Both the position numbers and the translations under genes were made by a program. The notes under the pieces are model-generated. The model worked only from the letters and a program-made list of their open reading frames with translations. It was not told where the DNA came from and did no database searches. This document shows, in pieces, positions 6,827 to 22,634 of a stretch of DNA of 23,776 nucleotides. Numbering within the stretch: position 1 is the first letter of the stretch; the number at the start of each line of letters is the position of its first letter. The DNA comes from Candidatus Heimdallarchaeota archaeon (GTDB taxonomy: Archaea > Asgardarchaeota > Heimdallarchaeia > Heimdallarchaeales > Heimdallarchaeaceae), in NCBI GenBank assembly GCA_021399395.1, contig JAAFKJ010000004.1, positions 1 to 23,776 of the forward strand, read 5' to 3'.

Positions 6827-7705
6827 CTACTCCGTTAAATCCCCCAAAAATTCGAGAACAGCTCTACTACACTCCTCCGGATAGAATAACCATACATATG
6901 CATGCATTCCTCCTTTGATGTGAACAATTTTACTTTCAGAGAGTAAAGATCTGAAGTGTTCCAAGGCAGATTTGAATTTCTCGTTTTTCCAGTTTTCTTC
7001 ACCTGGAAGAAACAACACTGGTGCTTTGATATTTTTGTAGTAATCTTCAAATCGAATGGTCCAGTAGTTCTCCATATAACTCTCGCTTACCCAGAGGGGC
7101 ACAGTTCCTGTATATTTTCCATCAAGAGTTTCATATATCTCATATTCTGCCATAGTTTTCACATGTTCATTCCAAAAACCTCGAGGTTCATAGGCTTCCT
7201 TCAGTTTTTGCATTATTTCTTCAGGAGAATCATAGAAAACTTGGGATGACCTTATCCTCTCTATCATTTGTTCTTTCTCTTTCTTCCTCTCTTCTTCAGA
7301 GGGGTCACTTAAACCGTAAGGATCGTAAGCATTGTTCATAGCACTACCTTCAACAACTACGGATAGAACTTTTTCAGGATATCTTGCTGCTATACTTACA
7401 GATAGTTCAGCACCCAAAGAACTCCCAACAAAGTGAGCTTGCTCTATTTTCATTTTATCCATTAATAGAACAATATCATCTGCCATAGTATCCAAGTTAT
7501 AGTCTGTTTTTGGTTTATCAGAAAGCCCATGACCTCTGTAATCAATAAGGATTAACCTATATTTGTTTTTGAGAAAAGGTACTATCCCATTCCACATCGC
7601 AAGAGATGAGAACCCAAAGTGTAGTAAAATGATAATTTCACCATCACAGGGATAATCGTTATAATGTAAATTTATACCATTGACTTCTATATAGTTATCA
7701 ATCAT
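6827..7705 (-). CDS. alpha/beta hydrolase fold protein (292 aa)
   Basis: LLHFGFSS, IDYRGHGLS, nucleophile elbow GSSLG, C-terminal His (GGMH). True start taken as ATG 7705 (MIDNYIEVNG). The ORF-track extension to 8026 is antisense to the SRP RNA. Confidence 0.9.
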   Translation of the reverse strand: MIDNYIEVNGINLHYNDYPCDGEIIILLHFGFSSLAMWNGIVPFLKNKYRLILIDYRGHGLSDKPKTDYNLDTMADDIVLLMDKMKIEQAHFVGSSLGAELSVSIAARYPEKVLSVVVEGSAMNNAYDPYGLSDPSEEERKKEKEQMIERIRSSQVFYDSPEEIMQKLKEAYEPRGFWNEHVKTMAEYEIYETLDGKYTGTVPLWVSESYMENYWTIRFEDYYKNIKAPVLFLPGEENWKNEKFKSALEHFRSLLSESKIVHIKGGMHAYVWLFYPEECSRAVLEFLGDLTE

Positions 7706-7792
7706 GTTAGAACCCTTCTTTATATTGCAAAGCACGAGAACTGAAATTTGAACCATTAAATACCTATAGTTTAACTGACCCAAAATAGCAAT

Positions 7793-7802
7793 GTTTAAAA
7801 TA
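7793..7802 (+). promoter_or_regulatory. TATA box of the SRP RNA gene
   Basis: TTTAAAA at 7794-7800, about 25 nt upstream of the predicted RNA 5' end. Confidence 0.6.
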
Positions 7803-7823
7803 GTCTGACTCCTTTTTGCAATT

Positions 7824-8163
7824 ACGAAACTGAGTCGATAGCAACGACTAGCCGGGGACCTAGGGCGTCCTTGTACCAGAAGCGCTCTATATGCTGGGGT
7901 GAACTCTGTTGTTGAGGCTTCGTTGAAGTTGATACGCCTTATTCGGAAAGCGTCGAAGCGTCGACCCGTTGGACTGTATATTTCAGAGGCGGTTTCGGAG
8001 GAAATCGTCAGAAAGGATAAGATCAAAATGGGCCAGGCACGGAAGTGAGAAGCTCTAAGATCGATATGTGGTGCTTGCGGTCATCGGCGTGGAGCTTATG
8101 AGTAAGAAACGGCTTCTGATGCGTTGTCGAACTTCAGGTCGCTATGTTCGGCTCAGTTGTCGT
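7824..8163 (+). ncRNA. ffs: archaeal signal recognition particle (7S) RNA with Alu and S domains
   Basis: GC-rich island. Helix 1 pairs ACGA-AACTGAGTCGA (7824-7838) with TCGGCTCAGTT-G-TCGT (8148-8163). Alu domain has a UGUA turn (7872) and loop-loop pairing TAGGGCG(7861-67)/CGCTCTA(7883-89). Helix 6 is GGCGGTTTC-GGAG-GAAATCGTC (7988-8009). Helix 8 is GGGC-CAGG-CAC-GGAA-GTG-AGAA-GCTC (8030-8055). Confidence 0.95.
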
Positions 8164-20116: not shown

Positions 20117-20563
20117 TTATACGTATCTATACTGAAACTTTTCTTTAACAAATTCTAATAACTCTTCAAGTTTTTTCCAGTCCTTTTTACCCTTAGTTCC
20201 TAGTATGGTCTCGATTTCTGTTTTATAGTCTTGGAGATCTTTGATATCAGCTATGTAAGCATTAATCTCAGCTTTATTTGTATCGATTTTAGTAGGGATT
20301 TCTTCCAAGGTTATCTCCATCTTTAATATTGACAAATCTTCACTTTCTTTTGCAGCAAGTAATTTTGTAATGTCGGTGTCAAGTTTTGCTACTCTTGAAT
20401 TTATAGAAAGAATTCTTTGATTTATCATTACTACCATATCTTCTGCACGCGATGCTAGAGGATTTTTGATTTTCTTCTTGCGTTTGATTGAAAAAAATAG
20501 TATTCCAATAACTGCTAATACCCCTGCCCCCACACCTAGAATTATGTAAAGAGTGTTAGTCAT
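20117..20563 (-). CDS. N-terminally membrane-anchored coiled-coil hypothetical protein
   Basis: TM segment LYIILGVGAGVLAVIGILFF followed by KRKKK, then heptad-rich helices. Confidence 0.7.
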   Translation of the reverse strand: MTNTLYIILGVGAGVLAVIGILFFSIKRKKKIKNPLASRAEDMVVMINQRILSINSRVAKLDTDITKLLAAKESEDLSILKMEITLEEIPTKIDTNKAEINAYIADIKDLQDYKTEIETILGTKGKKDWKKLEELLEFVKEKFQYRYV

Positions 20564-20672
20564 TTTCCTAAGGAGAAAATTAATATGAAGCTATTTAAAC
20601 TTAAGTAAATTGTTTAAATATTCGTTTCTAACATATACTTTGTTGTCCAAAAAACATATTATGTGTAATATG

Positions 20673-20688
20673 GGAACTTTTTTAATCC
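20673..20688 (+). promoter_or_regulatory. putative BRE/TATA promoter for the dnaG leader
   Basis: GGAACTTTTTTAATCC resembles other promoter-like elements in the window and sits ~22-30 nt upstream of the first hairpin (20707). Confidence 0.45.
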
Positions 20689-20706
20689 AAGCTTCATTAC
20701 AGTTAC

Positions 20707-20956
20707 TTGAACTAAAAGCATAGTTCAACATATTACAATGACAGGTAAAGAATACCTGCAACGTTAATGTGAGTTTACAAAAAAATGATGGATAAAACTC
20801 ACCCTATCACGATTACAATCAATCACTATCAAATTACATTACCTTTACAAAATAAAGTGTGTTAAATGAGAAGAAGTATAATTTAGGTTAAGCTAAATTT
20901 TATTAATTTTAAGTAGGGTAGGGGTTTGTAGGTTTTCCATCGTTTCAAAGTAAGCT
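20707..20956 (+). ncRNA. candidate structured RNA / long 5' leader of dnaG
   Basis: Three contiguous paired elements: hairpin 20707-20728, extended hairpin 20729-20771, and a long-range arm pairing 20772-20807 with 20913-20956 (~29 bp including G-U). See findings. Confidence 0.5.
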
Positions 20957-20996
20957 AATGCTACTAAAATACAAAGCAAAATACAAGGTGAAACAA

Positions 20997-22634
20997 ATGG
21001 GCGCTAAAACCGATAACTCAACCACAAAATACGAAATACGCGCATCCTTCGAAATTGATGGTATTGTTGAAAAACCAGATATTATCGGAGGAATTTATGG
21101 ACAAACGGATGGATTACTTAGTGAAAATCTTGATATCCGTGAGCTCCAAAAAACAGGCAGAATAGGAAGGATCAATGTTGAACTTCGCAGTATAAGAGGA
21201 AAAACTTCAGGGAAAATTTTCATTCCGACAAGTTTGTCTCGTATGGAGACAGCTATCTTAGCTGCAACACTTGAAACAGTTGATCGTGTAGGTCCATGCA
21301 GCTGTACTGTAAAACTTGACGAGATAATAGATGTAAGAATCAGTAAACGTCAAAGTATTGTTGATCGTGCTTCTGAAATAATAAGACAATGGGATCAGAA
21401 TGTGAGTCCGTTTTCTACTAATATTACTTCAGAAGTTGAACGAACAGCTAAAACAAGTCCAGTTAAAGCAAGTCAGGTAGTAAGTATCAGTGATGAAGGA
21501 TTTTCTGCAGGACCTGGTTTTGAAAAACAAAAGAAAACAATTCTTGTTGAAGGCAGAGCTGATGTTGTTAATCTCTTAAAATATGGTATTGACAATACTA
21601 TAGCTGTAAATGGAACAAGTATTGCTCCAAAACTAATAAAGTTAATCTCAAAGAAAACTGTAACAGCATTCTTAGATGGGGACAGAGGTGGAGATCTTAT
21701 ACTCAAAGAGCTTCTACAAGTTTCCCACATAGAATATGTGGCACGAGCTCCTTTTAAGAAAGAAGTAGAAGACTTGAACAAGAGAGAGACCCTCAAAGCT
21801 TTAGATAATGCAGTTCCATTGAATAAGGCGATATTTCTTACTGGAGTAGATGAGGGAATTACAGTTAAAGAATTTCTTGAAAAATCGAAACCTCCGAGGA
21901 AGAAACTTCGATTAGGTTCCAAATCCAGAAAAACTGAACCTAAGAAAGAGAAGATAAAACAGCAAGATACTAGTGTAAAAGTTGTAAAACCTACTCCGAC
22001 CTCAAGAAAAACTACTGTTGATAAAGGTAAGGCAAGAGCTGTTAAAACTAAAGCAGATGTGAAAGTTGATAAAACTCCAAGAACACCTGCTCCAAGTAAA
22101 TCAGTTGCTTCAGCAACATCTCCAACATCCAGCCGCACCACTACTCAAAAAAGACCTCCTGGTAGGCCTTCAAGTAGGCCCCCAAGTCGTTCTTCTTCGA
22201 CAAGACCTTCAAGTAGACCCCCAAGCAGATCGTCTTCAACAAGACCTTCAAGTAGACCTCCAAGTAGATCCTCAGGAAGACCTCCTGGTAGACCTAGCGG
22301 TAGGACTGGAACTTCCAGACCCCCAAGGAGAGAAATACGAAAAGTCGAGTTGTCAGAACATCTGTCAAAAGCTGTCAAAGAAATCAAAACTAAGTTGGAA
22401 GCAATTGTTTTTGATGAAGCAGACAAGGAAATACTAAGAAGTTCAGCTGCAGAGATTTTTGATAATTTGGGAAAAATCGAAAAGGGTGAAGTACTCGTAA
22501 TAGATGGAGTAATAACTCAAAGATTACTTGAAAGATCAAAGGATAAAGGGATATCTACCGTAATCGGCGCACGAAAAGGTGAGATCTCTAAAAAACCAAC
22601 AAACGTTAAAATTGTTGAATTTAAACACGTTTGA
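20997..22634 (+). CDS. dnaG: archaeal DnaG (TOPRIM protein; RNA exosome-associated subunit) with long low-complexity insert
   Basis: GIVEKPDIIGGIYGQTDGLL, ELQKTGRIGRI, LETVDRVGPC, TOPRIM VEGRADV...FLDGDRGG, C-terminal DGVITQRLLE. ATG 20997 has an AGGTGA SD. Confidence 0.96.
   Translation: MGAKTDNSTTKYEIRASFEIDGIVEKPDIIGGIYGQTDGLLSENLDIRELQKTGRIGRINVELRSIRGKTSGKIFIPTSLSRMETAILAATLETVDRVGPCSCTVKLDEIIDVRISKRQSIVDRASEIIRQWDQNVSPFSTNITSEVERTAKTSPVKASQVVSISDEGFSAGPGFEKQKKTILVEGRADVVNLLKYGIDNTIAVNGTSIAPKLIKLISKKTVTAFLDGDRGGDLILKELLQVSHIEYVARAPFKKEVEDLNKRETLKALDNAVPLNKAIFLTGVDEGITVKEFLEKSKPPRKKLRLGSKSRKTEPKKEKIKQQDTSVKVVKPTPTSRKTTVDKGKARAVKTKADVKVDKTPRTPAPSKSVASATSPTSSRTTTQKRPPGRPSSRPPSRSSSTRPSSRPPSRSSSTRPSSRPPSRSSGRPPGRPSGRTGTSRPPRREIRKVELSEHLSKAVKEIKTKLEAIVFDEADKEILRSSAAEIFDNLGKIEKGEVLVIDGVITQRLLERSKDKGISTVIGARKGEISKKPTNVKIVEFKHV
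22152..22331 (+). repeat. coding tandem repeat (RPSSRPPSRSSST-type, 39-nt period, built of 12-nt RPxx units) in dnaG
   Basis: RPPG-RPSSRPPSRSSST-RPSSRPPSRSSST-RPSSRPPSRSSG-RPPG-RPSG. DNA copies differ at synonymous positions. Confidence 0.9.

Follow-up and report, generated by a model that had tools for sequence, protein, structure and literature searches.

The intergenic region upstream of dnaG

In the stretch of 23,776 nucleotides considered here (referred to as the window), which belongs to the MAG of a Heimdall-group (Asgard) archaeon, the gene for DnaG is separated from a divergently oriented neighbour by a gap of 434 nt (20564-20996). The dnaG gene itself (+ strand, ATG at 20997, extending to 22634) is recognised by the NCBIfam model NF003108, “DNA primase DnaG”, with an E value of 3e-131, and its product contains a Toprim domain. 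The neighbour, up148 (20117-20563, − strand), encodes a protein of 148 amino acids with a hydrophobic N-terminus, for which no family was matched in Pfam and NCBIfam. The source assembly amounts to 2.8 Mb in 201 contigs at a completeness of 82%, and the genome encodes two proteins with RNase PH domains, the family to which the subunits of the archaeal exosome ring belong. Ahead of its C-terminal domain DnaG carries a low-complexity repeat rich in Pro, Ser and Arg (PSRSSSTRPSSRPPSRSS and similar; window 22000-22400), and within this stretch of the gene the local G+C content rises to 0.44-0.50, compared to about 0.33 elsewhere. On the opposite side of the gap the block TATTTAAACTTAAG (20592-20605) is nearly invariant across the genus and recognisable in g10, one of four further genera of the family which are designated g10 to g13 in the following. 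Located about 30 nt from the ATG of the divergently oriented up148, this block probably comprises the TATA box of that gene and its start region.

A previous reading of the window, made from the sequence only, had placed into the gap a structured RNA of about 250 nt which leads into dnaG, either as a leader or as an independent non-coding RNA. The structured and strand-specific RNA, of about 250 to 290 nt, has withstood our analysis; of the two roles offered for it the leader is favoured and the independent RNA disfavoured. That a conserved structured RNA is present we regard as highly probable, and we put the probability that it is the cis leader of dnaG at roughly three in four.

Promoter and predicted 5′ end

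The element is headed by a dedicated promoter on the + strand (20663-20685) consisting of an upstream block GTGTAAT (20663-69), a BRE-like sequence ATGGGAAC (20670-77) and the TATA box TTTTTTAA (20678-85). The TATA-like box of the sequence-only reading is thus real, and the composite ATGGGAAC-TTTTTTAA at 20670-20685 ends 21 nt ahead of the first hairpin. The promoter block ATGG[G/T]AA[C/G]TTTTTTAA, together with a GTGT-type block upstream of it, is kept in all five genera of the family. Searching five genomes with the pattern ATGGKAASNTTTTTAW returned it once per genome in each of them, always ahead of dnaG and unique also in the genome from which the window derives. A regulon sharing this motif was considered and is ruled out by its single occurrence in all five genomes searched. 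The promoters of the SRP RNA and RNase P RNA genes are unlike that of the element. As to the other genes of the window, several of which had been supposed to carry TATA boxes immediately adjacent to their start codons, the check covered the divergent neighbour, in which TATTTAAA is located at 20592-99 and the ATG at 20563 on the − strand.

Between the TATA box and the predicted start of the RNA lies a spacer (20686-20706, + strand) which, in the alignment, measures 20-21 nt in all 30 loci and is devoid of sequence conservation. In archaea, 20-21 nt is the typical distance between TATA box and transcription start. Since the spacer is fixed in length and free in sequence we read it as this distance, which places the predicted 5′ end of the transcript at about 20707-20710.

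Architecture of the predicted RNA

Percentages of paired cells given below refer to an alignment in which each of the 25 genomes of the genus is represented by a single sequence; these sequences divide into six groups, A to F. All stems listed in the sequence-only reading are found where it had placed them and, with one exception, all of them form part of the MFE structure calculated by RNAfold. The exception is AAAACT/GGTTTT, in place of which the adjacent register AAACUC/GGGUUU is drawn.

The RNA begins with the hairpin P1 (20707-20728, + strand), which is encoded by TTGAACTA (20707-14) and TAGTTCAA (20721-28) and in the MFE fold pairs UUGAACUA with UAGUUCAA around a purine-rich loop. In every clade it begins no more than about 3 nt from the predicted 5′ end, and 95% of its cells are paired. 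Throughout the genus its stem corresponds to GAACU/AGUUC; the four other genera carry GUCUGA/UCAGAC at the same place, and this exchange between genera is the clearest helix replacement within the element. P1 is followed by the hairpin P2 (20729-20771, + strand), likewise part of the MFE fold, with an outer stem (20729-35/20765-71) of which only 59% of the cells are paired and an inner stem (CAGGUA, 20742-47, with UACCUG, 20753-58) reaching 75%, with two pairs changed on both sides. P2 is found in groups A to D, and groups E and F possess other local hairpins at this position.

From 20772 to 20956 (+ strand) the element folds into a long rod of four stacked helices, P3a, P3b, P3c and P4, the two strands of the rod lying about 170 nt apart; the same architecture is obtained for representatives of all ten clades. 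P3a (20772-78/20950-56; AGTTTAC and GTAAGCT in the DNA) forms the base of the rod and is paired in 85% of the cells. P3b (20783-92/20936-45), which takes up the stem AAATGATGG (20783-91) / CCATCGTTT (20937-45), has as its core GAUGGAU (20787-93) together with UCCAUC (20936-41) and is paired in 94% of the cells. P3c (20795-800/20922-27) is predicted by the fold, and P4 (20801-07/20913-19; ACCCTAT and GTAGGGT in the DNA) is again paired in 85% of the cells. The rod is present as it had been described; it is, however, longer, as its base P3a takes in the T-rich stretch which follows CCATC. This is exemplified by UUGCAAGAAAA/UUUUCUUGUAA in group B and AGAUUACAGGAAA/UUUCUUGUAAUUU in group C; in the window the base comprises AGUUUAC/GUAAGCU together with AAAUGAUGGA/UCCAUCGUUU. 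Above the base the order of elements is P3b (GAUGGAU/AUCCAUC), an irregular internal loop, P4 and, finally, a multi-branch interior which accommodates variable hairpins, such as 20843-47/20853-57 and 20880-86/20893-99, the latter being the stem AATTTAG/CTAAATT (20880-99) named previously.

The conserved core of the rod is made up of CCUAUCACGAU, AAGUGU and GUAGGGUAGGGG, and CCUAUCACGAU and AAGUGU constitute the near-invariant blocks of the multi-branch interior. The most conserved core block, CCUAUCACGAUUAC (20803-20816, + strand), occupies the junction after P4; it is nearly invariant in all 25 genus sequences and recognisable as CUAUCACGAU, CUCAUCACGAUCA or CUAUCAUAAUCA in g11, g13 and g10. 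A further conserved block, AAGUGUGUUAAAUG (20855-20868, + strand), contributes the 3′ side of an inner hairpin, the 5′ side of which depends on the clade: its GUGU is (nearly) invariant in the genus and finds its partner in ACAU in group A, UACACAC in group C, UACACU in group D and AAUACACA in group F. The G-rich tandem GUAGGG-UAGGGG (20913-20924, + strand) is conserved in the genus and takes the form of GUAGGUAGGGA or GGGCAGGGG in g13 and g10. P4 is formed by CCUAU with one of the two tandem G-rich copies, and which copy is used differs by clade.

The rod is connected to the SD via a mostly unpaired, A-rich linker (20957-20985, + strand) of clade-dependent length; in group F, g10 and g13 fewer than 10 nt remain between the SD and the base of the rod. 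In the window the arm closes at 20956 and hence, as noted before, 30 nt ahead of the SD AGGUGA (20986-91), behind which the start codon of dnaG follows (20997-99; SD and start codon together occupy 20986-20999, + strand). GGTGA is present in 27 of the 31 aligned sequences, and AAGTGA, GAGGTAA and GAGATGATGA occur as variants. Loops and tail are rich in purines or in A. The extent of about 250 nt initially assigned to the element turns out to be too small: the element begins at the predicted 5′ end defined by the promoter and, in functional terms, reaches up to the SD.

Conservation and linkage to dnaG

Using the gap sequence as query, BLAST produced matches in 17 of 41 related genomes. dnaG was detected in 45 of the 47 genomes of the order, and all 30 other genomes of the family (24 of the same genus and 6 belonging to the four other genera) possess a long non-coding stretch ahead of it. 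A covariance model, R1, comprising P2 and the rod but not P1 (250 positions, 31 pairs), detects the element in all 25 genomes of the genus with E values from 1e-15 to 3e-37, every match being located directly upstream of dnaG. The copy number tracks that of dnaG, as one genome with two copies of the gene (G006) also has two elements. Among 27 metagenomic loci, the element is found in the same place in all four which stem from close relatives.

Outside the genus R1 loses its reach. Applied genome-wide it gave no match at an E value of 1e-3 or better in any of 22 genomes, and applied to the loci upstream of dnaG it detected the core in g13 (E 1e-4 and 5e-4) and, with E values of 0.037 and 0.99, in g10; in g11 and g12 it gave no match at the right place, nor did it find the element in the families f2 to f4. 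Direct reading of the four other genera nevertheless reveals that promoter, 5′ hairpin, long rod and versions of the core motifs are all kept. In g13 the divergent neighbour is not a homologue of up148, yet the element remains with dnaG.

Strength of the structural evidence

For the + strand of 20707-20956 RNAfold calculates −60.0 kcal/mol, compared to −39.0 ± 4.1 kcal/mol for 200 dinucleotide shuffles (z −5.11), none of which folds as well. As anticipated by the sequence-only reading the + strand is favoured, since the − strand of the same segment reaches merely −47.3 kcal/mol (z −2.44), a value attained by 2 of the 200 shuffles. Based on 60 shuffles each, the + strand attains a z of −2.0 or below in nine of ten clade representatives, namely −4.69 (A), −3.11 (B), −4.85 (C), −3.81 (D), −2.0 (E) and −4.72 (F) within the genus as well as −3.25 (g12), −2.92 (g11) and −3.53 (g13) in the other genera. 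The g10 representative, with a z of −1.36, folds no better than its 60 shuffles. In nine of the ten clades the z of the + strand lies below that of the − strand, and in group F the two are tied (again 60 shuffles each).

The covariation that had been called for is found in part. Of the cells formed by 43 named pairs and the 25 genus sequences, 82.8% are paired, compared to 30-41% if the partners are slid by one to three columns, and the covariation score amounts to 0.166, compared to 0.03-0.07 for slid partners; the structure was derived from these same 25 sequences, which favours the real pairing over its slid versions. None of 500 column shuffles reaches so high a percentage or score, both of which may be inflated by the relatedness of the sequences. 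Changes on both sides are, in contrast, restricted to 8 of the 43 pairs (20 cells), a number of pairs which is equalled by 120 of 500 column shuffles. Examples are a change from A-U to G-C in P3b, seen in five sequences, and one from A-U to U-A in P4, seen in four. RNAalifold, when run on plain MAFFT alignments, recovers P1, P2 and P3b only, or additionally P4, and the variable interior cannot be aligned in this manner. Within the genus, covariation is therefore real but modest, and just as much of the structural argument is carried by the folding energy, by the asymmetry of the strands and by helices being replaced from group to group and from genus to genus. Much of the signal consists of sequence conservation, which could also be brought about by constraint from a protein or at the level of DNA.

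Comparison with known RNA families and regulatory devices

The element was not matched by any described RNA family. Rfam 15 yields no match at gathering score in the whole window; within 20450-21100 the best sub-threshold match has an E value of 0.5 and 19.4 bits at a gathering score of 40, and the element regions of the four other genera return nothing at E values up to 0.1. RNase P RNA and SRP RNA are both ruled out as identities, for the genome has its own copies elsewhere, the former on contig C55 (26514-26837, 165 bits), the latter within the window at 7838-8145 (+ strand, 95.7 bits). The SRP RNA was missed in the default Rfam scan because its score falls just below the required gathering score, which is 96.5. 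A mechanically called ORF (6827-8026, − strand) extends with its 5′ part into the SRP RNA gene, and the TTG start of this ORF is thus probably wrong.

A C/D-box or H/ACA guide RNA is excluded as well, as UGAUGG becomes UGGAUGG in group B and matches to snoRNA models stay at chance level (E 1.5-4). Inspection of the P3b/P4 internal loop by eye did not reveal a K-turn signature. As a separate observation, sub-threshold matches to the H/ACA RNA HgcG (Pab40) with 45-50 bits (gathering score 77; E 1e-9 to 5e-11) adjoin a tRNA gene downstream of dnaG in g10 and g12 (L082, 3054-3340; L086, 291-576).

Several simple regulatory devices were considered and rejected in turn. An upstream ORF or leader peptide can be dismissed, as the ORFs starting at the conserved AUG within GAUGG encode 5 to 48 amino acids, pass through the conserved CCUAUCACGAU block in any of three frames and, apart from the first residues, have no peptide in common. 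An attenuator operating by an intrinsic terminator is incompatible with a U-run which consists of TTT in the window, of 4-8 residues in most of the genus and which is absent from g10 and g13; in the folds, moreover, the U-run following CCAUC pairs with the A-rich 5′ strand (e.g. UUGCAAGAAAA / UUUUCUUGUAA) and the helix runs on beyond it. Sequestration of the SD by a CCU-rich strand, for which the G-rich block would serve as a decoy, looks striking by eye in group D and g10; it is not conserved, as the predicted partner of the SD differs in nearly every clade, and the probability of the SD being unpaired ranges from 0.13 to 0.57 across clades. Mimicry of the 3′ end of 16S rRNA was suggested by the resemblance of GUAGGGGA, GAUGGAU and AUCAC to helix 45 and the 3′ tail. 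It is ruled out too, since 7-mers shared with the last 70 nt of the relatives' 16S match are no commoner than in shuffles: none occurs in group B and g13, and in the best case 4 are found compared to a mean of 1.0, a number reached by 4-6% of the shuffles. Apart from this, we observed that the 16S rRNA of g1 and g10 (L100/G001, L099/G041) contains an inserted hairpin of some 30-35 nt, by which helix 45 (GUAGGGGAACCUGCGGA) is separated from the terminal GGAUCACCUCC; the g13 genome G045 lacks this insertion.

A probable leader of the dnaG mRNA

Several observations favour a leader of dnaG over a separate non-coding RNA, namely the single dedicated and conserved promoter, to which no second one is added, the close approach of the rod base to the SD in several clades combined with a U-run that is not conserved across genera, the persistence of the element at dnaG where the upstream neighbour differs, and an RNA-library contig which bridges the element and the coding sequence of dnaG. 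In the aligned sequences no second conserved promoter-like block was found between rod and SD, and the conservation of the SD itself implies a leadered mRNA. The bridging contig stems from metatranscriptome data of a relative which is about 90% identical, where two runs of one study contributed a contig of 280 nt covering 20787-21040, i.e. the rod, the SD and the first codons of dnaG, with a depth comparable to that seen in the coding sequence, and another of 239 nt covering 20748-20976. As DNA may be present in such libraries and contigs are no proof of single transcripts, the support lent by the bridging contig is weak. The contigs from four runs do not cover 20300-20747, which is uninformative either way. 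From the above we infer co-transcription of the element with dnaG. That the leader, beyond being part of the mRNA, also exerts a regulatory effect in cis is a step further, which we consider probable, if with clearly less assurance.

The best surviving alternative, an improbable one in our judgement, is a stable non-coding RNA gene which has its own promoter, is kept beside dnaG and acts in trans as a scaffold or protein sponge, with dnaG depending for its expression on read-through or on a weak promoter belonging to it. Strength and dedication of the promoter, the highly conserved core and the pairing of regions near both ends into a rod-like shape would suit such a gene, as would the U-run of 4-8 residues which immediately follows CCAUC in most members of the genus. 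U-runs serve as termination signals in archaea. The run in the window is, however, only a TTT, and in g10 and g13 there is none; beyond this, the helix continues past the run, meaning that the full fold requires read-through. In group F, g10 and g13 the interval between rod and SD neither leaves room for a promoter of dnaG nor shows conservation of one. A copy number which follows that of dnaG exactly likewise speaks against an independent gene and so does, weakly, the RNA-library contig which continues beyond the rod into dnaG and whose depth resembles that of the coding sequence.

A riboswitch-like leader, in which the junction core would bind a small molecule and thereby alter elongation, stability or translation of the dnaG mRNA, is unlikelier still. 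The clustering of near-invariant nucleotides (CCUAUCACGAU, AAGUGU, GUAGGGUAGGGG) at a multi-helix junction with variable flanking helices is reminiscent of such an architecture, and the two possible partners of CCUAU in the tandem UAGGG repeat, of which the copy used is clade-dependent, could allow switching. Yet there is no conserved expression platform, as neither a partner of the SD nor the U-run is conserved across clades, no Rfam riboswitch was matched, no metabolite is obviously tied to DnaG, and typical aptamers are smaller and less rod-like.

Conservation at the level of DNA, i.e. of transcription-factor operators or of a divergent-promoter architecture with the RNA fold being incidental, is very unlikely: the conserved block GTGTAAT-ATGG upstream of the BRE, the similar GTGT-N4-5-ATG motif within the element (20857-20868) and the modest covariation would be in line with it, but the fold is strand-asymmetric in nine of ten clades, helices are replaced by other complementary sequences (P1 between genera, the rod base and inner hairpins between groups) and conservation spans about 250 nt downstream of the start, far beyond what operators need.

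A possible mechanism and its relation to known systems

Returning to the leader of dnaG, we propose that the dedicated promoter ATGGGAAC-TTTTTTAA would start a leader of about 290 nt at about 20707-20710, in which P1, P2, the long rod with its junction core, the A-rich tail, the SD and the start codon would follow one another. This leader would act in cis and set the level of DnaG after transcription has started, with the 5′-terminal hairpin P1 protecting the end of the mRNA and the rod with its core offering a platform for protein binding. As no conserved SD-sequestering helix, upstream ORF or terminator is present, a simple switch is not visible; what remains, in terms of the model, is a large conserved surface of a size suited to a protein, a 5′-terminal hairpin, and loops and a tail rich in A or purines. 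The likeliest binder may be DnaG itself or the exosome containing it, which would result in negative feedback on the stability or the translation of the mRNA. According to two published reports, DnaG is an RNA-binding subunit of the exosome which prefers A-rich RNA or poly(A) and binds rRNA strongly (PMC4227792, PMC3672285). The published RNA binding of DnaG is of a general kind (PMC4227792). The link of the RNA to the DnaG protein is one of position only. By analogy we regard feedback by DnaG or the exosome on the leader as a plausible idea and as the most economical hypothesis, while as a factual claim it is tentative.

The analogy is provided, in the first place, by the 5′ UTR element of E. 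coli rne (Rfam RF00040) and by the leader of pnp, both of which are autoregulatory leaders of enzymes of RNA decay. They would share with the dnaG element the design of a long multi-helix 5′ leader preceding a gene of the RNA degradation machinery, and likewise the logic by which a gene product acts on its own leader through binding or cleavage. They differ in being bacterial and in that their feedback has been demonstrated, as opposed to the archaeal case at hand where it is inferred; Rfam scans show no match of the element to them in sequence or structure, and DnaG is an RNA-binding cap subunit and not the nuclease. A second parallel concerns the leaders of archaeal and bacterial ribosomal-protein genes, which mimic the binding site on rRNA, such as the L1 operon leader of Methanococcus. 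If the feedback were true, the dnaG leader would, like these, be a cis structure of an mRNA bound by the RNA-binding protein it encodes, a kind of control which is known in archaea; in contrast to it, the ribosomal-protein leaders are much shorter, and mimicry of the 16S 3′ end has found no support here. The ompA 5′ UTR, finally, is a stabilising stem-loop at the 5′ terminus of a bacterial mRNA which counteracts 5′-end-dependent decay. P1, lying no more than about 3 nt from the predicted 5′ end, has the placement that protects, but the comparison would account for P1 alone and not for the rod of 180 nt, and the enzymes of 5′-end decay differ in archaea.

Structured regions upstream of dnaG were also noticed in other families of the same order. 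In family f4 (L089-L091) a different, more G+C-rich structured region of about 330 nt lies about 100-350 nt upstream of dnaG; in it CCACGCGAACAAUUAGGUGUCG and CGACACCAAUUGUUUGUGG form a helix of some 19 bp, a CCCUAUCGA block is also present, and its z is −2.97 on the strand of dnaG and −2.88 on the other strand. In family f3 (L092-L094) a hairpin with the conserved sequence GC(C/U)GGA..CGAGG.C..CUGAGG..CCGAUGA..GCAA..UCC(G/A)GC precedes dnaG by about 120-190 nt; it measures about 55 nt, and Rfam gave no match for it at E values up to 0.1. Its closing helix GCUGGAU/AUCCAGC resembles P3b (GAUGGAU/AUCCAUC), and by this resemblance the hairpin could be a minimal relative of the dnaG element. Since R1 finds nothing in other families, shared ancestry with their regions upstream of dnaG is not supported. 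Farther afield, gaps of 188-379 nt precede dnaG in 8 of 11 loci of Micrarchaeota, and gaps of 41-149 nt do so in Nitrososphaeria and Geothermarchaeota (roughly measured from stop to stop).

Implications

The element accounts for the otherwise puzzling length of the gap between up148 and dnaG. Archaea have, to our knowledge, very few known cis-regulatory RNAs, and among the texts accessible to a full-text literature search no description of an archaeal dnaG leader, or of any non-coding or cis-regulatory RNA of Asgard archaea, was found. It is conceivable, albeit doubtful at present, that DnaG, alone or as part of the exosome, senses its own level via the leader of 290 nt and that this is an instance of lineage-specific dnaG leaders occurring in several archaeal phyla. 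If true, it would represent the archaeal counterpart of the feedback loops of bacterial RNase E and PNPase, and a habit so far undescribed. Being conserved family-wide and tied to a single gene, the leader offers a handle on the regulation of the archaeal exosome or of DnaG as well as on what the RNA-binding domains of DnaG recognise, and the element provides an easily scored annotation marker for these MAGs.
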